Part shown: positions 2,628 to 17,352 of the stretch, piece after piece
Numbering within the stretch: the stretch's first letter is position 1
How the letters are laid out: every line of letters starts with the position of its first letter
Assembly: GCF_001598795.1 (NCBI RefSeq)
Contig: NZ_BCZP01000005.1
Coordinates: 270,001 to 302,000, forward strand
Direction of reading: 5' to 3'
DNA length: 32,000 bases
DNA from: Delftia acidovorans NBRC 14950
GTDB taxonomy: Bacteria; Pseudomonadota; Gammaproteobacteria; Burkholderiales; Burkholderiaceae_C
Notes under the pieces: generated by a model
What the model saw: only the letters and a program-made list of their open reading frames with translations
Databases searched by the model: none
Told to the model about the DNA's origin: nothing
Position numbers and translations under genes: made by a program

Positions 2628-4349
2628 ATGATCTCTTCCCTCTACTGGCCCTACCTGGTGGCCGACTACTACCACGCGCTGGAGATCGTCAGCGCCGTGG
2701 TGGCCGTCGTCATCCTGCTGTCCAGCATCGACGACCTGTTCATCGACGCCTGGTACTGGGTGCGCGAGGCCTGGCGCGCGCTGACCGTCAAGCGCCGCTA
2801 CCAGCCGCTCAAGGCACAGCAGTTGCAGGAGGTCGAGGAAAAGCCGCTGGCCATCATGGTGCCGGCCTGGCTGGAGTACGACGTGATCGCACCCATGCTC
2901 GAGAGCATGGTGGGCACGCTGGACTACAAGAACTACATGATCTTCGTGGGCACCTACCGCAACGACGAGCGCACCAAGAACGAGGTGGAGCGCATGCGCC
3001 GGCGCTACCGCCAGCTGGTCCGCGTGGAGGTGCCCCATGACGGCCCCACCTGCAAGGCCGACTGCCTCAACTGGATCGTGCAGGCCATCTTCCAGCAGAA
3101 CACGCTGCAGCCCGAGCCCTTTGCCGGCCTGATCCTGCACGACAGCGAGGACGTGCTGCACCCGCTGGAGCTCAAGTACTACAACTACCTGCTGCCGCGC
3201 ATGGACTTCATCCAGCTGCCCGTGACCTCGCTGGAGCGCGAGTGGTACGAGCTGGTGGCCGGCACCTACATGGACGAATTCGCCGAATGGCACACCAAGG
3301 ACCTGGTGGTGCGCGAGAGCATGTCGCACATGGTGCCCTCGGCCGGCGTGGGCACCTGCTTTTCGCGCAAGGCGATGGAGGAGCTGGCGGCCGAGACCCA
3401 CAACCAGCCCTTCAACACCGACACGCTGACCGAGGACTACGACATCGGCGCTCGGCTGGCGCGCCGGGGCATGAAGCAGATCTTCGGCAAGTTCCCCGTG
3501 GACTACGTGATACGGCGCAAGCCGCTGTTCGGCCTGGGCAAGGAAAAGGTGTCCACGCTGACCATGCCGCTGGGCATCCGCGAGTTCTTTCCCAACACCT
3601 TCAAGACCGCCTACCGGCAAAAGGCGCGCTGGACACTGGGCATCGGCCTGCAGGGCTGGAGCCAGGTCGGCTGGGCCGGGCCGCTGTCCACCAAGTACCT
3701 GCTGTTCCGGGACCGCAAGGGGCTGGTGACCTCCTTCGTGGCCATCCTGGCCTATCTGCTGCTGCTGAACTTCCTGCTGTTCCTGCTGGCCGATCACATG
3801 GGCTGGTGGACGGTGTACTACCCGTCCCTGTTCGCTCCCAACGGCTGGCTGGTGACGCTGATGAGCGTCAACGTCATCGCCCTGCTGCTGCGCGTGGTGC
3901 AGCGCGCCTGGTTCGTCTCGCGCCTGTACGGCTGGGAGCACGCCATGCTGTCCATCCCGCGCATGGTGATCGGCAACTTCATCAATGCCATGGCAGCGGC
4001 GCGCGCCTGGAAGCTGTTCATCGTCCACCTGGTCACGGGCAAGCGGCTGGCCTGGGACAAGACCATGCACGACTTCCCGTCCCCCGACCAGTTGAGCCAC
4101 CAGCGCCAGCGCCTGGGCGAGCTGCTGCTGTCATGGCAGGCCATCGACGAAACCCGGCTGGCCACCGCGCTGGAGATACAGCAGCGCGAACGCCGTCCGC
4201 TGGGCGCCATCCTCATGGAGCAGGGCTGGCTGGACGAGGCCACGCTGCGCGAGGCCATCAGCTTCCAGCAGGGGGAGCCCACCGACCCCACGGTGCATCC
4301 CGACATTCCCGCACAAGGCATTCCAAGCACCCCAAGGGCCGGCATATGA
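2628..4349 (+). CDS. nfrB: NfrB-like processive family-2 glycosyltransferase (exopolysaccharide synthase) with C-terminal MshEN-type c-di-GMP-binding domain
   Basis: Colinear with E. coli NfrB as remembered: LSSIDDLFIDAWYWVR, EKPLAIMVPAW, TLDYKNYMIFVGTY, CKADCLN, ILHDSEDV, IQLPV..LEREW, VPSAGVGTCFSRKA, TEDYDIG, and the QxxRW motif (QKARW, nt 3618-3632). Several TM helices follow the catalytic domain. The MshEN tandem motif is at the C-terminus. Confidence 0.85.
   Translation: MISSLYWPYLVADYYHALEIVSAVVAVVILLSSIDDLFIDAWYWVREAWRALTVKRRYQPLKAQQLQEVEEKPLAIMVPAWLEYDVIAPMLESMVGTLDYKNYMIFVGTYRNDERTKNEVERMRRRYRQLVRVEVPHDGPTCKADCLNWIVQAIFQQNTLQPEPFAGLILHDSEDVLHPLELKYYNYLLPRMDFIQLPVTSLEREWYELVAGTYMDEFAEWHTKDLVVRESMSHMVPSAGVGTCFSRKAMEELAAETHNQPFNTDTLTEDYDIGARLARRGMKQIFGKFPVDYVIRRKPLFGLGKEKVSTLTMPLGIREFFPNTFKTAYRQKARWTLGIGLQGWSQVGWAGPLSTKYLLFRDRKGLVTSFVAILAYLLLLNFLLFLLADHMGWWTVYYPSLFAPNGWLVTLMSVNVIALLLRVVQRAWFVSRLYGWEHAMLSIPRMVIGNFINAMAAARAWKLFIVHLVTGKRLAWDKTMHDFPSPDQLSHQRQRLGELLLSWQAIDETRLATALEIQQRERRPLGAILMEQGWLDEATLREAISFQQGEPTDPTVHPDIPAQGIPSTPRAGI
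4110..4268 (+). other. Tandem 24-residue MshEN-type c-di-GMP binding motif (aa 495-547 of the synthase)
   Basis: RLGELLLSWQAIDETRLATALEIQ - QRERR - PLGAILMEQGWLDEATLREAISFQ. Both halves fit RLGxx(LVI)(LVI)xxG(LVIF)(LVI)xxxx(LVIF)xxxLxxQ with a 5-residue spacer. Deviations are Gly10->Gln and position 11 (Ala) in half 1, and Arg1->Pro and position 11 (Trp) in half 2. Confidence 0.7.
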
Positions 4350-7213
4350 AGCATCTCGCTCCCCTCGTTCGCCCTCTCACGCTGGCCGCGCTGCTGGGCG
4401 CCGGCTGGAACGCGCCGCCGGCCTGGCCGCAGGCCGCAGCAGCCGTCAAGGCCGAGGCGCCGCTCAGGGGCCGCGCATGGCAGCTGGCCAACCAGGCCTA
4501 TGCCCACTATCAGGCCGGCCGCTTTGCACGGGCCGCCAGCGCCGCCGCATCGGCCGTACAGCTGCGCCCCGACCTGCTGCGCCTGCGCATGCTGCTGATC
4601 TACTCGCTGCAAAAGCAGGGCAAGAACGAGGAAGCGCTCAAGGCCATCGCCTCGGCCCGCGCCGCCGGGCTGGACGAGGCCACGCTGCAGCAGGCCGAAA
4701 CCAATGTGCGGGCCGCAGCGGCAGGCGGGGCGGCGGGCGGGCCTGCGGGGGCCACGGCTTCCGAGGCCTACAACAAGGCCTTTCCCATCGCCACGCAGGC
4801 CTACGCCGACTACAACGCCAGGAACTACGCAGACAGCGCGCGCAAGGCCGAGCAGGCCTTTCGCCTGGACCCCAGCCAGGGCCAATGGGCGCTGCTGTGG
4901 ATTGGTGCGCTGGAGGCGCAGGAACAGCTGGGTGCCGCCATCGAGGCCGCAGATGCCGCCCTGGCCCTGGAGCCCCCCAACAAAAGCGATCTGGTGGCCA
5001 AGCGCCAGACCCTGCGCCGCAGCCAGGCCGTGCTGCCGGCGCAAAAGGCCTACCAGGCGCTGATCGCCAACAACCCGGCGCAGGCCGTGCCCTTTGCGCG
5101 CGAGGCCGTGGCGCTGGCGCCGGGAACGGCATCGCACCGCCTGCTGCTGATCACCTCGCTGCTGCTGGCCGAGCAATTGCCCGATGCGGAAAAAGCCGCA
5201 GACGAGGCGCTGGCGCAGGACAACGAAGACACAGCGGCGCTGGGCATGCGCGGCTACATCCGCCAGCGCCAGGGCAAGACCGCACAGGCCAATGAAGACT
5301 TCGATGCCGTGCTCAAGCAGGACTGGCTGGACGAAAAGCAATCGGCCAACCTGCGCCTGATCGCGGCCGACGCGGCCCTGGCCGCTGGCGACGCGGCACG
5401 CGCCCGCGCGCTGCTGGCGCCCATGCCGGCACAGGATGAATCCGTGGCCCGCCGCCTCAAGCAAGCCGATGACCTGCGCCCCGGCCGCGATACGCCCATG
5501 GTGGCCGATACGCGCGGCGCTTCGCAGACCCTGGCCATGGCCGACTATCCGCCGCCCCTGCAGGACTGCCGCGACACGCCCTATGGCACGGTCTGCGAGC
5601 TGCAGCCTTCCGATGCCCAGGGCACGGGCGGCCCCAGCGCCCAGGCCTATGCGGCCTACGCGCGCCAGGACTACAAGGCCGCCATCGAACATGCGCAAAC
5701 GGCCGTGGAGCAGGACCCCGACAATGCGCAACTGCAAAAGCTGCTGACCACCACGCTGGCCGCAGGCAACCGCGACCAGCAGGGCCAGGCCCTGCTGCGG
5801 CTGGACAAGTCCCTGTCCCTCACCCCCAACGACCCCCAACTGCTGATGCAGCGCGGCTACCTGTACTCGCGCCAGGAAGAGCCGGCCAAGGCGCTGCAGG
5901 ACTTTCGCGCGGCGCGCGCCACGGGCGAGGCGCCAGCGGGCGCCATGCTGGACGAAGGCTATGCGCTGGCCGGCACCGGCGACAACCGGGGCGCCGTGCG
6001 CACCTTCAAGGAAGCCATCGACCTGGACGACGCCGGCACCGCCAAGCTCACGCCTGGCCAGCGCGAAAACGCACGCAGCGCCGTCTCCGGCTACGCACGC
6101 GAGTGGGGCGCCATCGTCTCCATGGGCTACCGGGGTGCGCGGCCTGCGGGGCGTGCGTTCTCGGACGGCATCCTCACCCAGGCCGGCGACGCCGTGTTCG
6201 GCACGGCCGAGGCCTACTGGCGTCCGTCCAACTTCCTGAACTCGTCCACCCGCATCTTCGATGTCTACGGGCGGCTGGGCAGCACCTTGCATGACGGCGG
6301 CGGCACCACGCTGGGCCAAAGCGCCATCGACCCCTGCACGGGCCTGCCCATCAATGTGCAGGCGGGCGACAACCGCGGCATCTCTGGCCTGCCCACCACC
6401 ACGGGCTCGCTGGGCATGCGCTTCACGCCGTCCACCAAGTACGCGCTGACCTTTGGCATAGAGCGCCAGTTCAACATCGGCTCCGCCACGCGCTCGGGCT
6501 TCATCACGCCTGAATCGCCCCAGCTGCGCTGCCTGATGAGCGGGCGCGATCCGCTCAACCCCACGGGCCCGGCGCTGGGCAACCCGATATCGGCCAAGTA
6601 CAGTGCGGGCGCGGGCCAGGGCGGCTGGCTGGCCTATGTCACCCATGGCTTCTACGAGGGAACGGGCCGGCGCACGGACCGCTCCAGCTGGTTCACCATG
6701 GAAGGCTACAGCCAGGCCGGCTATGCCAACCAGAGCATGGCCTCGCGCTTCACACTGACCGACCAGACCAGCGGCGCCCAGGTGGGCGACGGCTCGGGCC
6801 GCTACAAGCGCGAGCAATGGTTCTTCTCCACCGAGGCCCGCATCGGCCGCAGCTTCCGCGCCGACGGCATCAACCAGGGCCTGGTGATCTTCCCGTTCGG
6901 CGTGGTCGCGGCCGACTGGATCAAACAGAGGAACCGCGTGCAAGTGCGTTCCCTGCAGGCCGCCCCGGGCGCCACGCCCACCGCAGCCCAATTGGCCGCC
7001 CAGCAGGGACAGACCCTGGCCCTGCAAGGCAATGGCAGCAGTTGGTCGGCCAGCGCCGGCGTGGGCGTCAGCCTGCGCCAGTGGTTCCGCGAAAGCCACT
7101 ACAGCACGGCCCAGTCCTATGTGGACTGGTCCATGCAATACCGCTTCAACATCGGCGGCGGCCAGGCCGACCGGGCCAAGGGCCTCTTCATGACGCTGAC
7201 GCTGTCCTATTGA
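4346..7213 (+). CDS. nfrA: NfrA-like outer-membrane exopolysaccharide export protein (signal peptide, TPR region, C-terminal beta-barrel)
   Basis: The start ATG overlaps the synthase stop (ATGA at 4346-4349). The track ORF 3242-7213 is the same frame with a spurious N-terminal extension. Signal peptide: MKHLAPLVRPLTLAALLGAG. About 550 aa of Ala/Leu-rich TPR-like repeats (AYAHYQAGRFARAASAAASAVQLRPD..., YARQDYKAAIEHAQTAVEQDPDN...). The C-terminal third is Gly/Tyr/Ser-rich, consistent with beta strands, and ends ...GLFMTLTLSY (aromatic terminal residue). Confidence 0.75.
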   Translation: MKHLAPLVRPLTLAALLGAGWNAPPAWPQAAAAVKAEAPLRGRAWQLANQAYAHYQAGRFARAASAAASAVQLRPDLLRLRMLLIYSLQKQGKNEEALKAIASARAAGLDEATLQQAETNVRAAAAGGAAGGPAGATASEAYNKAFPIATQAYADYNARNYADSARKAEQAFRLDPSQGQWALLWIGALEAQEQLGAAIEAADAALALEPPNKSDLVAKRQTLRRSQAVLPAQKAYQALIANNPAQAVPFAREAVALAPGTASHRLLLITSLLLAEQLPDAEKAADEALAQDNEDTAALGMRGYIRQRQGKTAQANEDFDAVLKQDWLDEKQSANLRLIAADAALAAGDAARARALLAPMPAQDESVARRLKQADDLRPGRDTPMVADTRGASQTLAMADYPPPLQDCRDTPYGTVCELQPSDAQGTGGPSAQAYAAYARQDYKAAIEHAQTAVEQDPDNAQLQKLLTTTLAAGNRDQQGQALLRLDKSLSLTPNDPQLLMQRGYLYSRQEEPAKALQDFRAARATGEAPAGAMLDEGYALAGTGDNRGAVRTFKEAIDLDDAGTAKLTPGQRENARSAVSGYAREWGAIVSMGYRGARPAGRAFSDGILTQAGDAVFGTAEAYWRPSNFLNSSTRIFDVYGRLGSTLHDGGGTTLGQSAIDPCTGLPINVQAGDNRGISGLPTTTGSLGMRFTPSTKYALTFGIERQFNIGSATRSGFITPESPQLRCLMSGRDPLNPTGPALGNPISAKYSAGAGQGGWLAYVTHGFYEGTGRRTDRSSWFTMEGYSQAGYANQSMASRFTLTDQTSGAQVGDGSGRYKREQWFFSTEARIGRSFRADGINQGLVIFPFGVVAADWIKQRNRVQVRSLQAAPGATPTAAQLAAQQGQTLALQGNGSSWSASAGVGVSLRQWFRESHYSTAQSYVDWSMQYRFNIGGGQADRAKGLFMTLTLSY

Positions 7214-7270: not shown

Positions 7271-8329
7271 ATGGATTCGACCAAGCAAGCACCCCGCCCT
7301 GCCCTGCACGGACTGCGCTCGGGCATGGCGCGCGCCGCACGCGGGCTGGCCGGCTGCGCACTGGTGCTGGGCGCGCTGGCAGCGCAGGGTACGGCCCAGG
7401 CCCAGGCCCAGGCCCAGGCCCAGGCACAGGACAGCTCCTCCATCGTCCTCAGGGGCAAGGATGGCTGGCTGTTTCCGGGCTGGGGCAGCCTGACCCAGGT
7501 GGACCGCGCCGGCATCACCGAATCCACCCGGCTGATCACCGAGGCGCGCAACCTGCTGGCCGCTCGCGGCGTGAAGCTGCAGGTGCTGCTGCTGCCCGAC
7601 AAGGTGCGCTTCTATGCCGACAAGATGCCCGACGGCAAGGCCATGAGCGCCGATGTCCAGGGCCGCTACAGGCAGGTGCTGCAGGCGCTGCAGGCCGCCG
7701 GCATTCCCAGCTTTGACGACGAGGCCGTGCTGCGCACCGTGCGCGACAGCGGCAAGGATGTGTTCTACCGCACCGACCAGCACTGGACCCAGGCGGCAGC
7801 CGACGCCACGGCCGAGGCCACCGCCCGCATGGTCCAGGGCGAGGTGCCCCAGCTGGCCGGCAGCGCCGGCAGCGGCCTGGCCCTGGGCGACACCGTCACC
7901 GAGCGCCGCTATGGCGACCTGGCCGAGCTGTTTCTGACCGCCGAGGAGCGCAAGCAGATCGGCCGCGAGGTCTACACCGTGCGCCGCCAGGCTCCGGCCA
8001 AGGGACTGCTCGACGATGAGCCCGCACCCGTCCACGTGACGGGCCACAGCATGGTCCAGCCCTACTTCGGCTTTCCGCAAAAGCTCTCCAACCTGCTGGA
8101 CCGCCCGGTCTCGCTGAACTGGAAGCCCGGCAACGTGGGCCAGTGGACCATGCTGCTGGAGTACCTGGAGTCGCCGGCCTTCAAGTCCCACAAGCCCCAG
8201 GTGCTGGTGTGGCAGATGTTCGAGCCCACCTACAGCTACGGCCCCAACGCGGCCGGGCAGTGGGACAACGCCTCGCTCATGCCCAACGCCACCTGGCTGG
8301 AGCGGCTGCGTGCCGCGCTCAAGGGCTGA
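7271..8329 (+). CDS. AlgX/AlgJ-family SGNH-like polysaccharide O-acyltransferase, secreted form
   Basis: Strong RBS (AAGGAGAAAGCTCCC-ATG). Signal peptide followed by an (AQ)6 linker. Family motifs: LRGKDGWLF, the FYRTDQHWT Asp-x-His block (nt 7775-7786), and a later VTGHSMV Gly-x-Ser block. Confidence 0.7.
   Translation: MDSTKQAPRPALHGLRSGMARAARGLAGCALVLGALAAQGTAQAQAQAQAQAQDSSSIVLRGKDGWLFPGWGSLTQVDRAGITESTRLITEARNLLAARGVKLQVLLLPDKVRFYADKMPDGKAMSADVQGRYRQVLQALQAAGIPSFDDEAVLRTVRDSGKDVFYRTDQHWTQAAADATAEATARMVQGEVPQLAGSAGSGLALGDTVTERRYGDLAELFLTAEERKQIGREVYTVRRQAPAKGLLDDEPAPVHVTGHSMVQPYFGFPQKLSNLLDRPVSLNWKPGNVGQWTMLLEYLESPAFKSHKPQVLVWQMFEPTYSYGPNAAGQWDNASLMPNATWLERLRAALKG
7394..7429 (+). repeat. 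Hexanucleotide tandem repeat (GCCCAG)x5 + GCACAG encoding (AQ)6
   Basis: Read directly from the sequence. It is in frame and sits just after the signal peptide of the AlgX-like protein. Confidence 0.9.
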
Positions 8330-9467
8330 CACCGTGGACCCCACCGCGCAAGAACTGCAAACCGACAAAGGACACCGGCGCAACGCCTGGATCTGGGGCG
8401 CCCTGCTGCTGTCGGGCCTGGCCTGGGGCGGCTGGACGCTGGCCAGCGGGGGACCGAAGGCCGGCGAGCTGCAACTGGCCGCCTGGCTGGATGGCCGCGC
8501 GGGCGCGGCGCTGAACAAGGGCCTGCGCCTGCCTGCGCAGTCCTCGCTGGAAACCGGCCAGGCCGCGCTGCGCTACCGCCTGCTGGGCGACACGGGAGCG
8601 CAGGTGGCCCTGGGCTGCCCGCAATGGATGTTCTACCGCGACGGCCTGCGGCCCCAGCCCGGCACGGGCGCCGCGCCCTTCGAGGCGCGCCAGCGTCTGC
8701 TGCGCCACTGGACGCGGCAGTTGCAGGACAAAGGCATTGCCACCCTGGTGGTGGCCGTGCCCGACAAGTCGCGCATCGAGGCCGCCCATCTGTGCGGCCT
8801 GCCCGTGGCTCCCGTGATGCTCCAGCGCCTGGACCTGTGGCAGCAGCGCCTGCAGGCCGACGGCATTGCCTTCGCCGATCTGCGCCCCGCCCTGCAGGCT
8901 CAGGAGCAGTCACAGCCGGTGTTCTTTCGCACCGACGTGCACATGAATGCCGAGGGCGCACGCGCCGCCGCCCTGGCCGTGGCCCAGGCCGCGCTGCCGC
9001 TGCTGGGCGGGCAGCGCGGCGCCCAGGCCTTCGAGGAATCCGCGCCCGGGCCGCTGCAGCCGCTGCCCGGCGACCTGCTGGCCCTGGCCGGCCTGGCCGA
9101 CGCACCGGCAGGCTGGCGCCCGCAGCGCGACGAAATACGCCCCCAGGCCATCACCCCCGTGCGCGGCGGCGGCCTGCTGGACGAGACGCCGCCCGTGCAG
9201 GTGCTGCTGGCCGGAAGCTCCAACGGGCTGCGCAGCAATTTCGCGCCACAGCTCGGCCGCGCGCTGGGCCAGGAAGTCTGGAACCTCAGCATGGACGGCG
9301 GCCAGTTCAGCGGCGCCATGGTGGCCGCGCTCAAGCGCCGCGCCTCCTGGCCGGCCAGCCTGCGGCTGGTGATCTGGGAGTTCTCGGAAAACACCTTGTC
9401 CCTGCCCCTGACGGACGATGAAAAAGCGGCGCTCAAGGAGATGGACGCCGCCTCCCCGCCTGCGTGA
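8310..9467 (+). CDS. AlgJ-like SGNH-like O-acyltransferase, N-terminally membrane-anchored paralogue
   Basis: GTG start at 8310 (GGAG 7 nt upstream; overlaps the previous gene by 20 nt) or GTG at 8334. There is no in-frame ATG near the 5' end. TM anchor: AWIWGALLLSGLAWGGWTLA. Motifs: QWMFYRDG, the FFRTDVHMN Asp-x-His block (nt 8934-8942), and LLAGSSNG (Gly-x-Ser). Confidence 0.65.
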   Translation: MPRSRADTVDPTAQELQTDKGHRRNAWIWGALLLSGLAWGGWTLASGGPKAGELQLAAWLDGRAGAALNKGLRLPAQSSLETGQAALRYRLLGDTGAQVALGCPQWMFYRDGLRPQPGTGAAPFEARQRLLRHWTRQLQDKGIATLVVAVPDKSRIEAAHLCGLPVAPVMLQRLDLWQQRLQADGIAFADLRPALQAQEQSQPVFFRTDVHMNAEGARAAALAVAQAALPLLGGQRGAQAFEESAPGPLQPLPGDLLALAGLADAPAGWRPQRDEIRPQAITPVRGGGLLDETPPVQVLLAGSSNGLRSNFAPQLGRALGQEVWNLSMDGGQFSGAMVAALKRRASWPASLRLVIWEFSENTLSLPLTDDEKAALKEMDAASPPA

Positions 9468-9480
9468 CCCCGCCCGCTAC

Positions 9481-11061
9481 ATGCTGTTCAATTCCTATCT
9501 TTTCCTGCTGCTGTTCCTGCCCATCGCGCTGGCGGGCCACTACCTGGCCGGGGCCATCAGCCTGCGGCTGGCCGCGTTCTGGCTGTGCCTGACGTCCTTC
9601 GTCTTCTACGGCTGGTGGAACCCGCAGTTCGTCGCCCTGCTGGCCCTGTCCATCGCCTTCAACTACGTGGTGAGCCTGCTGATCCTGCGCTTTGCGGGCC
9701 GCGCGCGGCTGCAGGGGCTGGTCACCGCCCTGGGCGTGGGCGCCGACCTGGCGGCACTGTTCCACTACAAGTACTTCGCCACGCTGTTCAACTTCCTGGG
9801 CGAATGGGGGCTGACGCAGGGCGGCATGCACGAGCTGATCCTGCCCCTGGGCATCTCGTTCTTCACCTTCACCCAGATCGGCTACCTGCTGGACTGCCGC
9901 TCGGGCATCGTCAAGGAACGCAGCCTGCTCAGCTACGTGCTGTTCGTGACCTTCTTCCCGCACCTGATCGCGGGGCCCATCCTGCACCACAAGGAAATGA
10001 TGCCGCAGTTCGCGCAGCCGGATAACTACCGGTTCCGCGCGGACAACCTGTCCATCGGCGGCACGCTGTTCGTGATCGGCCTGGCCAAGAAGGTGCTGCT
10101 GGCCGACGAGATCGCGCCCTATGCAGACGCGGGCTTTGCCGCGCCCGGCGACCTGCAGTTCTGGGCCGCCTGGGGCGCCAGCCTCAGCTACGCGCTGCAG
10201 CTGTACTTCGACTTCTCGGGCTATTCGGACATGGCGCTGGGCCTGGCGCGCATGTTCGGCATCCGCTTCCCGCTGAACTTCAACTCGCCCTACAAGGCCG
10301 GCAGCATCATCGACTTCTGGGCGCGCTGGCACATGACGCTGACGCGCTACCTCACGGCCTACCTGTACTACCCCGTGGCCATGGCCATCTCGCGTGCACG
10401 CGAAAAGCGCGGCCTGTCCGTGGGCTCCAGCGCCGCGCGCACGCCCGGCGGCTTTGCGGCCACCATCGTCGTGCCCACGCTGTTCACCATGGGGTTGGCG
10501 GGCATCTGGCACGGTGCGGGCCTGCAGTACGTGATCTTCGGCCTGCTGCATGCCTTCTACCTGTCGGTCAACCATGCCTGGCGCATCTTCGTGGTCAGCC
10601 GCAAGCCGGCCGCCGCACGCAAGTCGGGCCGGGGCGTGCAGGCGCTGTGCGTTGTCATCACCTTCATCGCCGTGCTCATCGCCCAGACCTTCTTCCGCGC
10701 CCATGGCGTGGGCGACGCCATGCTGTTGCTCAAGGGCATGGCCGGCCTGCGCGGCGTGGAGGCGCTGGAATCGCTGTCGCACCTGCAGGGCCTGGCCGTG
10801 GGCGACGCGCTGCGGCTGGCCATAGGCCACCACATGCAGCTGGCCCTGGTCCTGCTGCTGCTGGCCATTGCCTGGTTCACGCCCAATGCCCACCAGATCC
10901 TGGGCCGCTTCTCGCCCGCCATGTTCAAGGTGCAGGAAGCGCCCCGCGCCTGGATGCGCTGGCGCCCCAGCGCAGGCTGGACGGCCGTGACCCTGGTCCT
11001 GCTCTTCCTGTGCCTGGTCAACCTGCACAAGGAAACCCGCTTCCTGTATTTCCAGTTCTGA
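9481..11061 (+). CDS. algI: AlgI-type membrane-bound O-acyltransferase (MBOAT)
   Basis: Start MLFNSYLFLLLFLPIALAGHY matches the AlgI N-terminus pattern; the track start at 9418 is a spurious extension. MBOAT hallmarks: FPHLIAGPI, LYFDFSGYSDMALGLARMFG, DFWARWHMTLTRYL, GIWHGAG (catalytic His). The C-terminal ...RFLYFQF matches the ...FLYFQF tail of P. aeruginosa AlgI as I recall it. Confidence 0.9.
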   Translation: MLFNSYLFLLLFLPIALAGHYLAGAISLRLAAFWLCLTSFVFYGWWNPQFVALLALSIAFNYVVSLLILRFAGRARLQGLVTALGVGADLAALFHYKYFATLFNFLGEWGLTQGGMHELILPLGISFFTFTQIGYLLDCRSGIVKERSLLSYVLFVTFFPHLIAGPILHHKEMMPQFAQPDNYRFRADNLSIGGTLFVIGLAKKVLLADEIAPYADAGFAAPGDLQFWAAWGASLSYALQLYFDFSGYSDMALGLARMFGIRFPLNFNSPYKAGSIIDFWARWHMTLTRYLTAYLYYPVAMAISRAREKRGLSVGSSAARTPGGFAATIVVPTLFTMGLAGIWHGAGLQYVIFGLLHAFYLSVNHAWRIFVVSRKPAAARKSGRGVQALCVVITFIAVLIAQTFFRAHGVGDAMLLLKGMAGLRGVEALESLSHLQGLAVGDALRLAIGHHMQLALVLLLLAIAWFTPNAHQILGRFSPAMFKVQEAPRAWMRWRPSAGWTAVTLVLLFLCLVNLHKETRFLYFQF

Positions 11062-11082: not shown

Positions 11083-11322
11083 ATGTCCCTGAATGACATC
11101 GAAACCAAGATTGCCCAGATCATCGGCGCCATCATCCTGACCTCGGTCGAGCCCGATACGCTGCTGCTCGAATCGGGCCTGGTGGACTCGCTGTCCGCCG
11201 TGGACGTGGCACTGGCCATCGAAAAGGAATTCGGCGTCAAGATACCGCCATCGGAGATCGACCTGCACCTGGAATCCGTGCACACGCTGGCGCAGTACGT
11301 GGCCGAGCAGCGCAAGGCCTGA
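11083..11322 (+). CDS. Stand-alone acyl/aminoacyl carrier protein (DltC/PCP-like)
   Basis: 79 aa with a GGAGA RBS. Phosphopantetheine-attachment context GLVDSLSAVDVALAIEKEFG, with the candidate Ser encoded at 11188-11190. The size and acidic helix pattern are typical of carrier proteins. Confidence 0.8.
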   Translation: MSLNDIETKIAQIIGAIILTSVEPDTLLLESGLVDSLSAVDVALAIEKEFGVKIPPSEIDLHLESVHTLAQYVAEQRKA

Positions 11323-11379
11323 TGCAGCGCCTGCACGCCGCCGCCCTGTCCCTTTGTCCCTGCGCAACAAGGAGCCCGC

Positions 11380-12864
11380 ATGCGATTCAGTTTTGACCGC
11401 TTCGACTTCACCGAGCCCGGCGCCGACACCGCGCGGCCCGCCGTGATCGATGCCGCCGGCACGCTGGACTGGCAGCAACTGGCCCAGGCCGTGGCGCAAT
11501 GGGAGCAGCAGGCGCTGGCGCGCGGCGCGCGGCGCGACGAGCCGCTGCTGATCACGGGGCACAAGGAGACCGCGTTTCTCGTGGCCATCCTCGGCTGCCT
11601 GCGCCTGGGCGTGCCCTTCGTGCCGGTGGACGTGATCAACCCGCCCGAGCGCATGGCGCGCATCGCCACGCTGGTGCAGGCCGGCCTGCACTACGACGCG
11701 CAGGCCCGCAGCTTCCTGGACACCGGCATCGCCGCGCAGCCGCTGCAGGAAAAGTCGCTGGCCTACATCATGTTCACCTCGGGCAGCACGGGCGATCCCA
11801 AAGGCGTGCAGATCGGGCGCGAGAGCCTGGGCCTGTTCGCCGGTTGGATACGCGACTGCCTGGCCCTGGGCGAGGCGCCGGTCTTCATGGACCAGATGCT
11901 GTTCAGCTTCGACTTTTCGCTGTTCAACTGGATGGGCGCCCTGGTCACGGGCGGTGCCTGCGTGCTGTGCGCGCGCGAGACCATTGCCGACCGCCAGGCC
12001 TTTGCCGCCTACCTGGCGGGCACCCATGTGAACGTCTGGGCATCCACGCCCTCCTTCGTGCGCCAGCAGCTGCTGGATGCAGACTTCGACCAGCAGCACC
12101 TGCCCGACCTGCGCGTCTTCGTCTTCGGCGCCGAATCGCTCACGCCCACCGTGGCCGAGGCGCTGTGGAGCCGCTTTCCCCAGGCGCGCATCATCAACTC
12201 CTACGGCCCCACCGAGGCCACCTGCTCCACCACCTGGGTGGAGATCGACCCCGCGCTGCGCCAGCGCGCGCCGCTGCCCTTTCCCATCGGCCGGGCCAAG
12301 CCCTATGCCGATGTGTTCCTGGACGAAGGCGAGATCTGCGTGGCCGGCGACCATGTGATGCGCGGCTACCTCAACCGCACCGACCTGCACGCCACACGCA
12401 TGTTCATGCGCAACGGCAAGCGCGGCTACCGCACGGGCGACCTGGGAGAGATCGACGGCGAGGGCCTGGTCACCTTCCACGGCCGGCGCGACGACCAGAT
12501 CAAGATGCACGGCTACCGCATCGAGCTGGCCGAGGTCGATGCCGTGCTGGCCACCCTGCCCGGCGTGCGCGCGGGCGCGGCGGTGGCACTCAAGCGGCCC
12601 GATGGCTTCATCGTGCGCATGATCGGCTTCGTGGACCTGGACCGCAGCGGCCCGCCCGGCATGCAGCCCCTGCCCGAAGACCTGGCCGGGTGGCGCGAAC
12701 TGCTGGCCCAGCGCGTGCCGCCCTACATGATTCCGTCGGAACTGCTGGCCTGCCACGGCTTTCCGCTAACGCAGACTGACAAGGCCGACCGCAAGCAACT
12801 GGAGCGCATGTACCTTGATGCACGCATGCGCCCCGCCAAGGAAACCAAGGACCCGCAGGCATGA
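11380..12864 (+). CDS. DltA-like stand-alone adenylate-forming enzyme (carrier-protein ligase)
   Basis: AAGGAG RBS. Adenylation core motifs: YIMFTSGSTGDPKGVQI (nt 11764-11808), NSYGPTEAT, YRTGDLG, GRRDDQIKMHGYRIELAEVD, and a terminal DKADRK lysine. The N-terminal half is colinear with B. subtilis DltA as remembered (PLLITGHKE..VAILGCLRLGVPFVPVD...PPERMARI versus PILVYGHME..VSFLGSVKAGHPYIPVD...PSERIAKI; FSFDFSLFNWMGALVTGG versus FSFDLSVMDIYPSLVTGG). Confidence 0.85.
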   Translation: MRFSFDRFDFTEPGADTARPAVIDAAGTLDWQQLAQAVAQWEQQALARGARRDEPLLITGHKETAFLVAILGCLRLGVPFVPVDVINPPERMARIATLVQAGLHYDAQARSFLDTGIAAQPLQEKSLAYIMFTSGSTGDPKGVQIGRESLGLFAGWIRDCLALGEAPVFMDQMLFSFDFSLFNWMGALVTGGACVLCARETIADRQAFAAYLAGTHVNVWASTPSFVRQQLLDADFDQQHLPDLRVFVFGAESLTPTVAEALWSRFPQARIINSYGPTEATCSTTWVEIDPALRQRAPLPFPIGRAKPYADVFLDEGEICVAGDHVMRGYLNRTDLHATRMFMRNGKRGYRTGDLGEIDGEGLVTFHGRRDDQIKMHGYRIELAEVDAVLATLPGVRAGAAVALKRPDGFIVRMIGFVDLDRSGPPGMQPLPEDLAGWRELLAQRVPPYMIPSELLACHGFPLTQTDKADRKQLERMYLDARMRPAKETKDPQA

Positions 12865-13562
12865 CCTCCGCTTTTTCCCCCGTGATGCGTACCGTCGCGC
12901 TCGCCCTGGCCGGCCTGGCCGGGCTCTCCTGCCTGCCCGCCGCGCATGCCGAAGGCACGCTGGCCCAGCTCTATGCGGCGCGCCCGCCCGCAGGCTCGTC
13001 CTTCGTGCGCGTGGTCCACCCCGACGCGGGCAGCCTGCGCGTGAAGATAGGCAGCGGCCCCGAGCAGACGCTGTCCGGCAGCAAGCCGGCCAGCAGCTAC
13101 GCCATCGTCAAGGGCGACACGCCCTTCGGCATTCAGCTGGACGGCAAGAGCGCCGGCAGTATGAAGGTGGCGCCGGGCAGCTTCACCACCCTGGTGCCGC
13201 AGCGCCCGGGCAGGAATGCGGCCGCGCGCTTCACGGCCATCGACGACTCCGGCGGCAGCCAGGACGCGCTCAAGGCCGAGCTGCGTTTCTACAACCTCAC
13301 CACGGACTGCCCCCAGGGCGGCCTGCAGGTCGCGCCCGCGGGCACGCCGCTGTTCACGGGCGTGGCGCCGGCCGCATCGGCCAGCCGCTCCATCAACCCG
13401 GTCAGTGCCCAGCTCGCCGCCACCTGCGCCACTGCGGCCAGCGCGCCGCTGGCGCTGCCACAGTTGCAGCCGGGCGACCACTACAGCCTGTTCATGACGG
13501 GTACGGCCGCCGCACCCGTGCTGCGCGGCCAGGCCAGCGCCACCGACACCTATCGTCCCTGA
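12861..13562 (+). CDS. algF: AlgF-like periplasmic protein (accessory component of Alg-type O-acylation)
   Basis: The start overlaps the upstream stop (ATGA at 12861-12864). Signal peptide: ...LSCLPAAHA|EG. Blocks parallel to P. aeruginosa AlgF as remembered: QLYAARPPAGSSFVRVVH (ALYGP.APKGS.FVR..N), SFTTLV (YYTLV), AELRFYNLT, RSINPVSAQLAA (REINPVKV.LAL), YSLFMTGTA. This rests on recall only. Confidence 0.6.
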   Translation: MTSAFSPVMRTVALALAGLAGLSCLPAAHAEGTLAQLYAARPPAGSSFVRVVHPDAGSLRVKIGSGPEQTLSGSKPASSYAIVKGDTPFGIQLDGKSAGSMKVAPGSFTTLVPQRPGRNAAARFTAIDDSGGSQDALKAELRFYNLTTDCPQGGLQVAPAGTPLFTGVAPAASASRSINPVSAQLAATCATAASAPLALPQLQPGDHYSLFMTGTAAAPVLRGQASATDTYRP

Positions 13563-13588
13563 CCCAGCCCAAGGAGACCGACACAGAC

Positions 13589-14734
13589 ATGCGCACCCGC
13601 TCCGTATTGCGTGAAGACCACCTGCTGTTCAAGGAACAGGTGGACCGATTCGTGGCCACCGAGATCCTGCCCCACATCAATGACTGGGAGGCCGAGGGCA
13701 TCACGCCGCGCGCCCTGTGGCGCAAGGCCGGCGACAGCGGCCTGCTGAACTGCGACCTGCCTCCGCCCTACGGCCAGGGCGGCGACTTCGGCCACGCGGC
13801 CGTGGTCATCGAGGCGCTGGCGCGCGCCAACTGCCTGGGCATCGGCTTTTCCATCCATTCCGACATGGTGGCGCCCTATCTCTGGAACTTCGGCACGCAG
13901 GTGCAGAAGGACCGCTGGCTGCCGCGCATGGCCACGGGCGAGCTGATTGGCGCCATCGCCCTGACCGAGCCCGGCGCGGGCAGCGACCTCAAGGCCGTGC
14001 GCACGCGCGCCCGGCGCAAGAGCGAGAGTGAAGGCGGCGGCTACGTGCTCAACGGACAGAAAACCTTCATCACCAACGGCGTCAACGCCGGCCTGATGGT
14101 GGTGCTGGCCAGCACCGAGCCCGACCTGGGCGCGCGCGGCCTGTCGCTGTTCGTGGTGGAAGAAGGCATGAAGGGCCTGGGCAAGGGACCGGCGCTGCGC
14201 AAGATAGGCCAGCACAGCCAGGACACCTGCGAGCTGTTCTTCGACGAACTGCACCTGCCGGCCGACCACCTGCTGGGGCGCGAGAACGCTGCCTTCGAGC
14301 ATGTGACCCAGGAGCTGGCGCAGGAACGGCTGGCGATCGCGCTGCGCGCGGCGGCCTCCACCGAAGGCATGCTGGACGAGGCCGCCGAGTTCGTGCGCAA
14401 CCGCAAGGTCTTCGGGCGCCGCGTGCTCGACTACCAGAACACCCGCTTCAAGTTCGCCGACGCCCTGGCCAAGACCACCATGCTGCGCGTCTTCCTGGAC
14501 GACTGCCTGACCCAGCACATGGAAGGCTCACTGGACTCCGTCACCGCCGCCATGGCCAAGCTCAACGCCACCGAGCTGCAGGGCCAGGTGCTGGACGAGC
14601 TGCTGCAACTGCACGGCGGCTACGGCTACATGGCCGAATACGGCATTGGCCGCGCCTGGGCCGATGCACGGGCGCTGCGCATCTTCGGCGGCAGCAGCGA
14701 AATCCTCAGAGAGATCATCGGCAAGCGCTTCTGA
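13589..14734 (+). CDS. Acyl-CoA dehydrogenase-family flavoprotein (substrate unknown; possibly acts on a carrier-protein thioester)
   Basis: ATG at 13589 lies 11 nt after AAGGAGA; the track ORF 12815-14734 has a spurious N-terminal extension. ACAD pattern throughout: LFKEQVDRF, GAIALTEPGAGSDL, GQKTFITNG, and the C-terminal RIFGGSSEILREIIGKRF. The gene sits 26 nt downstream of the algF-like stop. Confidence 0.85.
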   Translation: MRTRSVLREDHLLFKEQVDRFVATEILPHINDWEAEGITPRALWRKAGDSGLLNCDLPPPYGQGGDFGHAAVVIEALARANCLGIGFSIHSDMVAPYLWNFGTQVQKDRWLPRMATGELIGAIALTEPGAGSDLKAVRTRARRKSESEGGGYVLNGQKTFITNGVNAGLMVVLASTEPDLGARGLSLFVVEEGMKGLGKGPALRKIGQHSQDTCELFFDELHLPADHLLGRENAAFEHVTQELAQERLAIALRAAASTEGMLDEAAEFVRNRKVFGRRVLDYQNTRFKFADALAKTTMLRVFLDDCLTQHMEGSLDSVTAAMAKLNATELQGQVLDELLQLHGGYGYMAEYGIGRAWADARALRIFGGSSEILREIIGKRF

Positions 14735-14751: not shown

Positions 14752-15726
14752 TCAGCGGGCGGCGGCCTTCCACTCGCGCAGCAGTTGCCGGGCCTCTGGC
14801 GTGTCGTTCAGCACCCAGGGGTCGATGGCGAAGGCGACCACGCGCTGGGCGCCGTAGTCGCGGGCCACGTCCCACTGGCGGCGCACGCGCTCGAAGCTGG
14901 CCGTGCGCGCCTGGAAGTCCGAGCCATCGGGCCGCGTGGGCGGCAGTTGCTCGAACAGTTCCACGATGAGGTCGAACGGCGCCCTGCGCTCCAGCAGCAT
15001 CTGCTGCAGCGGTGCCAGCGCCTCGTAGTTGCGCAGGCCCGCCACGCCCACGCCGTCCTGCACCATGGGGCGCAGGGATACGCGGTCCAGCAGGATGCTC
15101 CACAGCGTGGGCAGGCTGCCCAGCGTCTGCAGCTGGCTGAAATAGGTGGAGATGCCGGGCACTTGGCCGGATGTGGCCGCTGCCGCCTGCGCCAGTGGCT
15201 GCAGTGCGCTCACCAGCAGCTCGATGCGCTCGGGCGCGGCCCAGTGGTATTGCTCCAGCTCGTAGGGGATGTACCAGCCGCGAAACGCCGCATGGCGCGG
15301 CCAGGTGCTGGTGTACATGTGGCTGGCGCCCTGCTCGGCGATATGCGCCAGGTAGGGCGCGGGGCCTGCGGCGTTGGAAAGGCTGATCTGCTTCCACCAG
15401 CGCTCGTCATAGGGCAGGCCCAGGTGCACGCCCATGCCCAGTTCGGTGCAGATGTCCAGCAAGTCGGCGATCTGCGCGTCGGCCAGCATCCAGCTGTCCG
15501 CCTCGGAATCGCCTTGCAGGCCGCTCCATTGCACGAACAGCTCCCGGCAGCCCAACGCCTGGGTGGCGGCCAGGCGCTGGCGCCATTGATCGCGCGGCAT
15601 CTCCAGATGGCTGCGCCACGGCTGCAGGAAACTGCCCGACACGGGCGCCGAGGCCGCGCAACCGACCAGCGAGGCACAGGCGGCGGCCGCGCCGGCGCCG
15701 AGGAATTCGCGTCTGGACAAATGCAT
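14752..15726 (-). CDS. Tat-exported lipoprotein, DUF4434-like (glycoside-hydrolase-like TIM barrel) protein
   Basis: Start at MHLSRREFLGAGAAAACASLVGC: a twin-arginine motif SRREFL followed by a lipobox LVGC. Blocks GSFLQPW....W...L......G..ELFVQWSG and GWYIPYELE resemble the DUF4434 family as I recall it. The gene is convergent with the EPS operon (17 nt between stops). Confidence 0.55.
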   Translation of the reverse strand: MHLSRREFLGAGAAAACASLVGCAASAPVSGSFLQPWRSHLEMPRDQWRQRLAATQALGCRELFVQWSGLQGDSEADSWMLADAQIADLLDICTELGMGVHLGLPYDERWWKQISLSNAAGPAPYLAHIAEQGASHMYTSTWPRHAAFRGWYIPYELEQYHWAAPERIELLVSALQPLAQAAAATSGQVPGISTYFSQLQTLGSLPTLWSILLDRVSLRPMVQDGVGVAGLRNYEALAPLQQMLLERRAPFDLIVELFEQLPPTRPDGSDFQARTASFERVRRQWDVARDYGAQRVVAFAIDPWVLNDTPEARQLLREWKAAAR

Positions 15727-15940
15727 GGTGGGAACGGCCGCAAGGCTGCGTGAAGCGAAGCACCAAGAATACAGCCAAGCGGCGCGGCAGCCGCCCCGCA
15801 AGAGCCGGCCCACCCGGACTTGACCCGGCCGGGCTGAGGGTTGAATCAGAACCGACGATGAATTGGAGCCAAGGGGACGACGCCCGTGCAGATGTCCTGC
15901 CGGCCCGAACCAGGCAAGGACTTGCTGCCATTAGATCGAG

Positions 15941-15979
15941 TAGAAATGCCTCGCGCCACCCTTGGGCGGCGCGAGGCAT
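15941..15979 (-). terminator. Hairpin downstream of dctA (putative terminator)
   Basis: A 12-bp perfect stem, ATGCCTCGCGCC / GGCGCGAGGCAT (15946-15957 and 15968-15979), lies about 45 nt past the dctA stop. On the minus strand it is followed only by a short TTTCT tract, so the U-tract is weak. Confidence 0.45.
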
Positions 15980-16023
15980 CGTCGGGTGGGCCTTTGCCGG
16001 CCCTTGCCCTGGCCAGGGCGTTC

Positions 16024-17352
16024 TCAGGCCTTGGCCACGGCGGCCTCGGCGGGCAGGGCCTGCACAGGCTCTCCATCCAGGGCGGCATTGAGCTTGCTGT
16101 AGTCCAGCTCGTTTTCCCAGCGCGAGACCACCACAGTGGCCACGGCGTTGCCCATGAAGTTGGTGAGCGAGCGGCACTCGCTCATGAAGCGGTCCACGCC
16201 CAGGATCAGGGCCATGCCGGCCACGGGCACTTCGGGCACAACGGCCAGCGTGGCGGCCAGGGTGATGAAGCCCGCGCCGGTCACGCCGGCAGCGCCCTTG
16301 GAGCTGAGCATGGCCACCAGCAGCAGCGCGATCTCATGGCCCAGGGTCAGGTGGGTGTTGGTGGCCTGGGCGATGAACAGCGCGGCCAGCGTCATGTAGA
16401 TATTGGTGCCGTCCAGGTTGAAGGAGTAGCCCGTGGGCACGACCAGGCCCACGACGGACTTGCCGCAGCCGGCGCGCTCCATCTTCTGCATCAGCGAAGG
16501 CAGGGCCGATTCCGAGGACGAGGTGCCCAGCACCAGCAGCAGTTCCGCCTTCAGGTAGCGCGCCAGCTTGAGCACCGAGAAGCCGCACAGCCGCGCCACG
16601 AAGCCCAGCACCACGACCACGAAGAGCAGCGAGGTGATGTAGAACGAGCCCACCAGCCAGGCCAGGTTCACCAGCGAACCCAGGCCGAACTTGCCGATGG
16701 TGAAGGCGATGGCGCCAAAGGCTCCCAGCGGCGCAGCCTTCATCAGGATGCCGACCAGCTTGAACACGGGCGCCGTCAGCGCCTCCAGGAAGTTGAGCAC
16801 GGGCTTGCCCGCATCACCGACCATGGCCAGCGAGATGCCGAACAGCACGGCCACGAACAGCACCTGCAGGATGTTGTCGCCCACGAAGGGGCTGACCAGC
16901 GTCTTGGGGATGATGTCCATGGCAAAGCCGGTGAGCGTCAGCTCGTGCGACTTGGCCACATAGCCCTTGACGGCGGCCTGGTCCAGGTCGGCCGGGTTGA
17001 TGTTCATGCCCGCGCCGGGCTGCACCACGTGCGCCACCACCATGCCGACCACCAGGGCCAGCGTGGAGAAGAACAGGAAGTAGGCCATGGCCTTGAGGAA
17101 CACGCGGCCCACGGTGCGCAGGTGCGTCATGCCGGCAATGCCGGTGACGATGGTCAGGAAGATCACCGGCGCGATGATCATCTTCACCAGCTTGATGAAG
17201 GCATCGCCCAGCGGCTTGAACTGCTCGGCGTACTGGGGCTCGAAGTGGCCGAGCAGCACGCCTGCCACGATGGCGACCACCACCTGGAAATACAGCTGGC
17301 GGTAGAAAGGCAGCCGCTCGGGGCTGGCGGCGTGGGTGGGGACGGCATGCAT
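16024..17352 (-). CDS. dctA: C4-dicarboxylate/cation symporter DctA (DAACS family)
   Basis: Start at [10 protein letters not shown]...; the track start at 17574 is a spurious extension. Highly characteristic sequence: [63 protein letters not shown], and VDRFMSE.R..TN..GN. Confidence 0.9.

Follow-up and report, generated by a model that had tools for sequence, protein, structure and literature searches.

A candidate carrier-linked tailoring dehydrogenase belonging to the acyl-CoA dehydrogenase family in an Nfr-type exopolysaccharide operon of Delftia acidovorans

Introduction

Why does an exopolysaccharide operon end in a gene for a flavoenzyme of the acyl-CoA dehydrogenase (ACAD) family, and on what substrate would such an enzyme act? 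The question is raised by a locus of Delftia acidovorans NBRC 14950, which was analysed in a stretch of 32,000 nucleotides (contig NZ_BCZP01000005.1, positions 270,001 to 302,000) that is referred to here as the window and whose own numbering is used throughout. The operon in the window is an Nfr exopolysaccharide operon of the D. acidovorans type. Its genes encode, in order, an epimerase, a 747-amino acid protein that matches no known family, an NfrB-like and an NfrA-like protein, two AlgX-like proteins, a membrane-bound O-acyltransferase (MBOAT), a small carrier protein, an adenylase, an AlgF-like protein and the ACAD. The initial annotation of this DNA proposed that the adenylase, the carrier and the ACAD act as a trio in which a group is oxidized on the carrier before it is transferred to the polysaccharide.

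We examined the conservation of the ACAD gene, the family and active site of the enzyme, the origin of its clade, and the adenylase and carrier that would supply its substrate. We read the ACAD as a cytoplasmic dehydrogenase that is dedicated to tailoring a carrier-bound group in a carrier-fed pathway of polysaccharide O-acylation, and we give this a probability of about 0.5. The alternatives are discussed together with the evidence that bears on each of them.

Conservation of the ACAD Gene in the Operon

A species-level genome scan (one genome per species) with an alignment of the adenylase found a relative in 314 genomes, and the best 80 loci were mapped by tblastn. The adenylases of these 80 loci are 61-99% identical, and two of the loci are cut by contig ends, which leaves 78 that are informative. 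The AlgF-like gene is immediately followed by the ACAD gene in 71 of the 78, across about 15 genera of the alpha-, beta-, and gammaproteobacteria. Delftia, Comamonas, Diaphorobacter, Pandoraea, Trinickia, Burkholderia, Cupriavidus, Achromobacter, Bordetella, Oxalicibacterium, Xanthobacter, Stenotrophomonas, Xanthomonas, and Pseudomonas are among the genera represented. Frequent hosts of the locus are cystic-fibrosis and hospital opportunists (Achromobacter, S. maltophilia, B. multivorans, Pandoraea, and Bordetella genomospecies). The carrier and adenylase genes, which in the window come directly after that of the MBOAT, belong to the module in every complete locus, and the proposed trio of adenylase, carrier and ACAD is found together in 71 of the 78 informative loci.

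The same arrangement was reached from the opposite direction. When loci were approached through homologues of the ACAD (73-91% identity) in Delftia tsuruhatensis, Achromobacter, Pseudomonas, Xanthobacter, and Burkholderia, the order AlgX-AlgX-MBOAT-carrier-adenylase-AlgF-ACAD was present in all five contexts. In Xanthobacter the synthase part of the locus is rearranged, with the NfrA gene inverted and the DUF4434 gene absent, and the block from AlgX to the ACAD is intact.

The distance from the AlgF-like stop codon to the ACAD start is usually 3-10 nt across the loci, which is a modal range only as the automatic choice of start codons over-extended some open reading frames in GC-rich loci. In the window, the AlgF-like reading frame ends at 13562 and the ATG of the ACAD gene is at 13589, which leaves the 26 nt originally described. 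The gene (13589-14734, + strand, 381 amino acids) has its own ribosome-binding site, AAGGAGA, at 13571-13577 on the same strand, 11 nt before the ATG. It is the final + strand gene of the operon, as first annotated, and is followed by a convergent DUF4434 gene.

Five proteins of the module (adenylase, carrier, MBOAT, AlgF-like protein, and ACAD) were compared, and the ACAD is the most conserved of these. Its mean p-distance is 0.266, compared to 0.271 for the MBOAT, 0.317 for the adenylase, and ~0.44 for the carrier and the AlgF-like protein. The pairwise distances of the ACAD follow those of the other four proteins with r = 0.82-0.90, and the ACAD is co-inherited with the module.

These results bear on the possibility that the ACAD has no part in the pathway. 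The initial annotation had allowed for an unrelated metabolic gene that happens to be co-transcribed, and this is contradicted by the fixed place of the gene in 71 of the 78 loci, by the separate clade that the operon ACADs form (see below), and by distances that track those of the module. A related view, which we consider improbable, is that the ACAD is a passenger that was fixed at the operon end by chance or that has a non-catalytic role. In its favour, six Pandoraea species and Stenotrophomonas daejeonensis have lost the gene with no apparent harm to the remainder of the locus, and that of S. maltophilia FW16 is possibly frameshifted. Against it, 76 sequences keep the gene at 62-99% identity and with catalytic residues that do not vary, the gene is inherited together with the module and lies close behind the AlgF-like gene, and no promoter-like or terminator-like site was found between 10900 and 16000 that would give it a promoter of its own inside the operon.

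Loci without the ACAD

The seven syntenic loci from which the ACAD is missing belong to six Pandoraea species (L013, L016, L022, L027, L041, and L054), among them P. pnomenusa, P. nosoerga, P. pneumonica, and P. bronchicola, and to S. daejeonensis (L076). P. horticolens keeps the gene. In the Pandoraea loci the AlgF-like gene is followed by the DUF4434 gene within ~20-140 nt and all other genes are full length. In S. daejeonensis the AlgF-like gene has been relocated and now separates the NfrA-like gene from the first AlgX gene, and the DUF4434 gene follows the adenylase gene. A further locus, that of S. maltophilia FW16 (L065:12163-13285), has an ACAD match in two reading frames that is split at about residue 303, which is possibly a frameshift pseudogene or a sequencing error. 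The initial annotation held that absence of the ACAD from otherwise syntenic loci would speak against a role on the carrier. That is the situation in these seven loci and not in the 71 that have the gene.

Family, Fold and Active Site of the ACAD

The protein has the helical N-terminal, beta middle, and helical C-terminal domains of the superfamily, all above the Pfam cut-offs (Acyl-CoA_dh_N, 7e-30; Acyl-CoA_dh_M, 2e-23; Acyl-CoA_dh_1, 2e-36). Its best solved relative by sequence is the long-chain acyl-CoA dehydrogenase of humans (LCAD; 339 bits, E=3e-100), and the Geobacillus protein 2pg0 scores 325 bits. The remaining solved ACADs score at most 215 bits, with isovaleryl-CoA dehydrogenase (IVD) at ~194-199 and medium-chain acyl-CoA dehydrogenase (MCAD) at ~160. 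LCAD is also the best structural match of the AlphaFold2 model (pLDDT 74.8, with the C-terminus below 50), with a Foldseek TM score of 0.83 and 43-44% identity to 8w0z and 8w0t. The sequence has no signal peptide, and the ACAD is cytoplasmic, like the adenylase and the carrier.

The active site is intact and of the LCAD/IVD type, with a Glu at the position of the LCAD catalytic base and no Glu at the position of the MCAD base. Glu246 (GAA codon, 14324-14326) lies in ELAQERL and aligns exactly with the catalytic base in ELPQERL of LCAD (8w0t), in agreement with what had been noticed in the DNA. It is opposite a Gln in 8w0z, the E291Q catalytic-base mutant, and Glu291 is the catalytic base of human LCAD (PMC10925408). 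Gly367 (GGC codon, 14687-14689) lies in RIFGGSSEI, which pairs with IYGGTNEI of human LCAD and places this residue opposite LCAD Gly412. In MCAD (IYEGTSQI), the same position is that of Glu376. All 76 operon-linked orthologues have Glu246-Arg247 and Gly367-Gly368, and the Glu that docks electron transfer flavoprotein (ETF) in LCAD (E260, here Glu215) is invariant in the operon clade. The helix-G Glu arrangement is common to relatives in unrelated contexts (for example P0126 and P0130-P0132). It is a mark of the LCAD/IVD branch and no special adaptation, because beta-oxidation relatives share it.

Among the NCBIfam models are some for enzymes of the ACAD family whose substrates are carrier thioesters, namely the dehydrogenases of prolyl-peptidyl carrier protein (PCP) and MbtN. 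Both kinds of enzyme have been characterized as acting on thioesters of a carrier (see the papers cited in PMC5302061). The ACAD of the window scores 195.7 bits against the RedW model (NF045652, cut-off 650), 180.6 against the PigA model (NF053553, cut-off 500), and 117 against the MbtN model (NF037942, cut-off 700). It falls below all NCBIfam equivalog cut-offs and is therefore outside every described carrier-dependent ACAD family. The prolyl-acyl carrier protein (ACP) dehydrogenase AnaB (4irn) gives 152 bits and a prolyl-PCP dehydrogenase (5zw0) 142 bits, compared to the 339 bits of LCAD.

These scores decide against the analogy with PltE, RedW, and CloN3 to which the initial annotation pointed. 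By that analogy, the locus would be a proline-to-pyrrole cassette that places a pyrrolyl-2-carboxyl ester on the polymer. The locus has the adenylase, carrier and ACAD-family enzyme of such cassettes, its Glu on helix G is compatible with them, and in the aminocoumarins a sugar hydroxyl is the final acceptor of the pyrrolyl-carboxyl group. The ACAD does not group with the RedW/PigA/PltE/AnaB enzymes, neither by equivalog scores nor by clustering with the solved members, and the operon clade is nested inside LCAD-like beta-oxidation enzymes. The adenylase also disagrees, with 239 bits to DltA and 142-146 bits to prolyl-carrier ligases. We regard a pyrrolyl ester as very improbable.

Origin of the ACAD and Changes in the Substrate Cavity

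The single-domain proteins closest to the ACAD, among the representatives of a library that was clustered at 50% identity, share only 44-53% identity with it. The operon ACADs form one clade in a neighbour-joining tree (100 of 100 bootstraps), the sister of which is L146 (60% identical), followed by P0130. A single clade within LCAD-like beta-oxidation relatives indicates that the enzyme was recruited once from an LCAD-like beta-oxidation lineage. The relatives have other neighbours. L092 is found in an ACAD-thiolase-FadB context, and L146 stands between a FadD4-like fatty-acid CoA ligase and TctC-family binding proteins, with no carrier reading frame between the ligase and the ACAD. None of 80 metagenomic loci around relatives of P0126, the closest representative, has an MBOAT, carrier, AlgX, AlgF, or Nfr gene. 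Clustering with housekeeping acyl-CoA dehydrogenases had been named as a result that would count against a role on the carrier. The LCAD-like family and the catabolic neighbours go some way towards it, and the separate clade of the operon enzymes goes the other way.

Positions were called clade-specific when conservation within the operon clade reaches at least 95% and the residue is present in at most 10% of the out-group sequences. The roles of the LCAD residues, including those that line the substrate cavity, were taken from the published structure (PMC10925408). Changes in the cavity or next to Pro132 that are fixed in the clade are, in LCAD numbering, S130L, P132I, I136, L294A, V407A, and Q408L, of which P132I is just outside the out-group filter, with Pro in 18% of the out-group. 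Further clade-specific positions are W371N, P397G, and A399G, as well as Q182K in a loop that becomes ordered on CoA binding. In human LCAD, Pro132 at the start of helix E widens the cavity together with its small neighbours Cys129-Gly133 (PMC10925408). The equivalent stretch here is N81-C82-L83-G84-I85-G86. Of the operon clade, 97% share Ile85 and 100% share Leu83, and the stretch does not have the features of LCAD proper that go with bulky substrates. With the helix-unwinding Pro132 lost, the cavity should therefore be narrower than that of LCAD.

Two further positions were considered as markers and set aside. Arg253 (14345-14347), at the cavity position of LCAD V298, is invariant in the operon ACADs and may serve to hold an anionic or aromatic moiety of the substrate. 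It is shared by L146, L090, P0126, and P0130, the closest of the beta-oxidation relatives, and was rejected as an operon-specific adaptation. The position of LCAD Tyr282, which stacks on the adenine of CoA, varies within the operon clade as well as within the out-group and is uninformative as to CoA or carrier.

The ancestry of the enzyme gives weight to the main alternative, in which the ACAD acts on a free CoA thioester and is co-regulated with the operon, and the transferred group is unchanged. The enzyme could then serve in catabolism or detoxification of an acid that is released from the polymer or from the hydrolysed carrier, or it could adjust a precursor pool. The LCAD-like family, with a human LCAD match at the E-value given above, the thiolase and FadB or FadD4-like ligase genes that adjoin the nearest relatives, the several cavity residues (including Arg253) that are common to beta-oxidation relatives, and the seven intact loci in which the ACAD is dispensable with the same adenylase code are all in keeping with this. 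Against this, the operon, taken from its epimerase gene through to that of the ACAD, contains no gene for a CoA ligase, transferase, or thioesterase that could make or use a CoA ester. It would also be surprising for a pool-adjusting enzyme to show the strongest conservation in the module, to be fixed in 71 of the 78 loci and to remain with the block in Xanthobacter, and the substrate cavity has been re-modelled relative to the sister enzymes. We consider action on a free CoA ester unlikely on balance, and it is the rival that we take most seriously.

The Adenylase and the Carrier Protein

The adenylase (11380-12864, + strand) is a DltA-like amino-acid adenylase (DltA subfamily, 326.8 bits; AA-adenyl-dom, 269 bits) whose best matches in the PDB are LgrA and DltA. 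It is 99% identical to the D. acidovorans adenylase recovered in the genome scan. Its specificity code was read as DFFAVGSCSK with GrsA-PheA numbering checked on 1AMU, and the code of Bacillus cereus DltA was checked on 3FCC/3DHV. This exact code is found in 72 of 86 sequences, and the other 14 have one difference each. Asp235 and Lys517, the hallmark of amino-acid activation, are kept, and the conserved Asp235 points to an alpha-amino acid as the substrate. The pocket has two Phe residues and small residues with no charged side chain. Judged against known specificity codes, this suggests that the loaded group is a neutral, possibly sizeable amino acid. D-alanine was considered and rejected as unsupported, as none of the eight variable code positions match B. 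cereus DltA (DLMTLCTVAK) and Cys269, which sets D-selectivity, is Gly here. The code is also presumably unlike those for proline.

The carrier (11083-11322, + strand, 79 amino acids; Pfam PP-binding, 3e-10) has weak DltC and ACP matches, all below cut-off. Its phosphopantetheine site is Ser36 (11188-11190) in GLVDSLSAVD, and the DSL motif is conserved in orthologues. In the Stenotrophomonas and Xanthomonas loci (L051-L087; carrier gene at about 9740) the carrier is 32-37% identical to that of the window, compared to 61-64% for the adenylase and 62-68% for the ACAD. These identities suggest that the carrier of this lineage has diverged or that another has taken its place. One Lysobacteraceae locus (L073) retains a carrier that is 65% identical.

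Proposed Pathway

The route that we propose starts with the adenylase, which would activate a common amino acid and load it as a thioester on the Ser36-phosphopantetheine of the carrier. In the ACAD, Glu246 would take the alpha-proton and FAD the beta-hydride, giving a 2,3-dehydro (enamine/imine, possibly then 2-oxo) acyl-S-carrier, and the electrons would probably pass to ETF. The MBOAT would move the group across the inner membrane by way of its own C-terminal Tyr motif. In the periplasm, the two AlgX-type SGNH proteins and the AlgF-like protein would esterify it onto the polymer made by NfrB/NfrA, which is probably based on N-acetylmannosamine. Given the loss of its gene in some lineages, the ACAD step would amount to an optional decoration.

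We infer that the carrier thioester is the substrate of the ACAD from several lines of evidence. The absence of a CoA ligase or transferase from the operon means that the carrier thioester is the only thioester that the operon itself makes. The on-carrier reading is the most economical because there is one thioester in the operon, one thioester-modifying enzyme, a re-shaped cavity in that enzyme, and inheritance of its gene with the block.

Several observations weigh against on-carrier dehydrogenation. The sister enzyme L146 adjoins a FadD4-like CoA ligase, and the ACAD is 43-44% identical to the CoA-dependent human LCAD. Loss of the gene from seven otherwise intact loci indicates that the step is dispensable, or is supplied in trans or replaceable, and the adenylase code is the same in all seven. 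In mirror-tree analysis the partial correlations of the ACAD with the carrier (0.36), AlgF (0.36), and the MBOAT (0.39) do not single out the carrier. The phosphate-contacting residue H228 of LCAD is R183 here, so that a basic residue is kept, and this is compatible with CoA or carrier alike. Finally, the chemistry is awkward. When a primary aminoacyl thioester is dehydrogenated at the 2,3-position, the product is an unstable enamine/imine, which would be prone to hydrolysis to a 2-oxoacyl group, and to our knowledge there is a precedent for 2,3-dehydrogenation of an aminoacyl thioester only for proline. Confidence in the proposal is held at the level given in the Introduction because the ACAD is close to CoA-dependent enzymes, its gene can be lost, and its chemistry is awkward.

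Other Genes of the Operon and Its Surroundings

The G+C content of the region is ~70%, and the + strand genes from the epimerase to the ACAD form a single tightly packed array. The window opens within the operon, with the 3' end of a WecB-like UDP-GlcNAc 2-epimerase gene (3-281, + strand; Pfam Epimerase_2, 5e-15). In a public contig that encodes an identical NfrB-like protein (L088), the epimerase is the first gene of the operon and has its full 400 amino acids, with no further enzyme gene between it and the rest of the operon. The 747-amino acid protein (342-2585, + strand) has a C-terminal hydrophobic segment and no matches in Pfam or NCBIfam. Most loci encode it immediately upstream of the NfrB-like gene (29-97% identity), and it may serve the synthase as a periplasmic scaffold.

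The polysaccharide synthase is an NfrB-like, cyclic di-GMP (c-di-GMP)-binding family-2 glycosyltransferase (GT2; 2628-4349, + strand) that matches Pfam GT2 as well as PRK15489 with 945 bits (cut-off 537) and an MshE-related c-di-GMP motif with 54 bits (cut-off 38). Against the strict NfrB equivalog model it scores 593 bits, short of the cut-off of 1170. The NfrA-like protein (4346-7213, + strand) has tetratricopeptide (TPR) repeats and an outer-membrane NfrA_C domain (1.5e-18, 67 bits, cut-off 25). Two SGNH acyltransferases follow, the first of the AlgX type and periplasmic (7271-8329, + strand; Pfam ALGX, 1.7e-76) and the second of the AlgX/AlgJ type (8310-9467, + strand; 1e-75), and both are above the ALGX cut-off with 257.9 and 255.3 bits. 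The MBOAT (9481-11061, + strand) is DltB/AlgI-like (Pfam MBOAT, 1.4e-21, 77.6 bits, above cut-off), has 526 amino acids in public contigs, and ends in RFLYFQF (11041-11061), which contains a Tyr-bearing hexapeptide. The AlgF-like accessory protein (12861-13562, + strand) has a signal peptide and is predicted to be periplasmic (Pfam AlgF, 46.2 bits, cut-off 34.4).

The convergent DUF4434 gene (14752-15813, - strand; Pfam DUF4434, 2.5e-78) ends 17 nt past the ACAD stop codon. It is present in nearly all loci, right after the ACAD gene or, where this is missing, after the AlgF-like gene. Its product has a weak match to PRK09936 (61 bits), which presumably corresponds to E. coli YbcH, the product of the third Nfr gene. 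The DUF4434 gene is probably the counterpart of ybcH, in which case the ACAD gene is internal to the Nfr cluster and does not mark its border. Beyond it, D. tsuruhatensis has an insertion of VgrG and Rhs (type VI effector) genes (L001:12457-19398) between the DUF4434 gene and a sodium:dicarboxylate symporter gene. The corresponding part of the window (15813-16024) is without this insertion.

Significance

The open-access papers and bioRxiv preprints that were searched yielded no description of an Nfr-type operon in which AlgX, MBOAT, carrier, adenylase and ACAD genes are combined. If the ACAD does act on the carrier, it would be the first beta-oxidation-type dehydrogenase recruited to tailor a group bound for an exopolysaccharide, and the pathway would be the first Gram-negative MBOAT/SGNH acylation route that is fed by a carrier protein and not by acyl-CoA. 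A more specific version can be put forward only tentatively, and we think it doubtful as a whole. It holds that a 2,3-dehydro-aminoacyl or 2-oxoacyl ester, a group unreported on polysaccharides, is generated on a DltC-like carrier by an LCAD-derived enzyme and exported by the first carrier-fed MBOAT/AlgX system of Gram-negative bacteria. This equally tentative version would extend to the Nfr-type polymer of Delftia, Achromobacter, Stenotrophomonas, Burkholderia, Bordetella, and Pseudomonas, with the ACAD-less variants attaching the unoxidized amino acid. An unusual ester on the polymer could alter biofilm properties, phage adsorption, and immune recognition, and the lineages without the ACAD are a ready-made natural comparison.

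Comparison with Known Systems

The E. coli Nfr polymer is a c-di-GMP-controlled surface glycan and phage receptor. The system that makes it (NfrB/NfrA/YbcH with WecB) has been described (PMC8669469, PMC8669472), and the operon in the window has its c-di-GMP-binding GT2 synthase, NfrA-type TPR/outer-membrane protein, and UDP-GlcNAc 2-epimerase. Alginate O-acetylation by AlgI/AlgJ/AlgF/AlgX is likewise encoded in a synthase-dependent exopolysaccharide operon and uses an MBOAT, two AlgX-family SGNH proteins, and an AlgF-like protein. The locus differs in that the polymer is of the Nfr type and in that carrier, adenylase and ACAD genes are inserted between the MBOAT gene and the 3' end of the operon, with the AlgF-like gene between those of the adenylase and the ACAD. 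A carrier-free system with an acyl-CoA donor is thus not what is encoded here. An acyl-CoA donor has been shown for PatA, and according to a 2025 mechanistic paper the MBOAT/SGNH pathways other than Dlt do without a carrier protein (PMC12148441).

In the Dlt system, the carrier thioester loaded by the adenylase is the donor for the MBOAT, which is followed by an extracytoplasmic SGNH transferase (PMC12148441). The adenylase, small carrier, MBOAT, and SGNH proteins of the operon resemble this set. None of the first three reaches its Dlt equivalog cut-off (DltA, 322.7 against 559.85 bits, and 326.8 against 476 for the subfamily; DltB, 178.7 against 375; DltC, 30.7 against 68), and of the B. cereus DltA pocket (D197, L198, M201, T240, L267, C269, T293, V301, A302, and K492) only the universal Asp and Lys match. 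AlgX- and AlgF-type proteins take the place of DltD, as the SGNH proteins belong to the AlgX family, and an ACAD, absent from the Dlt system, is present. No DltX was seen in the operon, where no dedicated search for a small DltX reading frame was made, and a Tyr hexapeptide is instead fused to the MBOAT. A fused hexapeptide of this kind has been described for non-Dlt MBOATs of the PatA/AlgI type, while Dlt uses the separate DltX (PMC12148441). With FLYFQF on the MBOAT, the donor side of the pathway is therefore Dlt-like and the hand-over side Pat/Alg-like.

LCAD-like enzymes (human LCAD and Geobacillus 2pg0) are the best matches of the ACAD in sequence and fold, and the catalytic Glu, the Gly, and the ETF-docking Glu are kept. 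The ACAD differs from LCAD in the replacement of Pro132 by Ile and Ser130 by Leu and in several other cavity residues that were changed and then fixed in the clade, and its genomic context is an exopolysaccharide modification operon and not beta-oxidation. The prolyl-carrier cassettes (PltF/PltL/PltE, RedM/RedO/RedW, CloN4/N5/N3, and AnaB) have the triad of adenylase, carrier and ACAD in common with the operon, and differ in that the ACAD of the window is outside their clade and the adenylase is nearer to DltA than to prolyl ligases.

The closest overall logic is that of the mycobactin module MbtM(FadD33)/MbtL/MbtN/MbtK, in which an adenylating enzyme loads the carrier, the acyl-ACP dehydrogenase MbtN desaturates the bound group, and a transferase delivers it to the acceptor. 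The gene setting of MbtN is also found here, with a stand-alone adenylase, a carrier, an acyltransferase, and an ACAD in one operon. The ACAD is no member of the MbtN family, the adenylase is of the amino-acid/DltA type and not a fatty acyl-AMP ligase, and the acceptor would be an exported polysaccharide, reached via the MBOAT and AlgX-type proteins, and not the lysine of a siderophore. Taken together, the operon is a hybrid of an Nfr-type, c-di-GMP-controlled synthase and porin, an alginate-type periplasmic acylation system, and a Dlt-type donor system, a combination that appears to be undescribed. Tailoring of a carrier-bound group by an ACAD is already known in kind, and it is the hybrid pathway around it that appears to be new.

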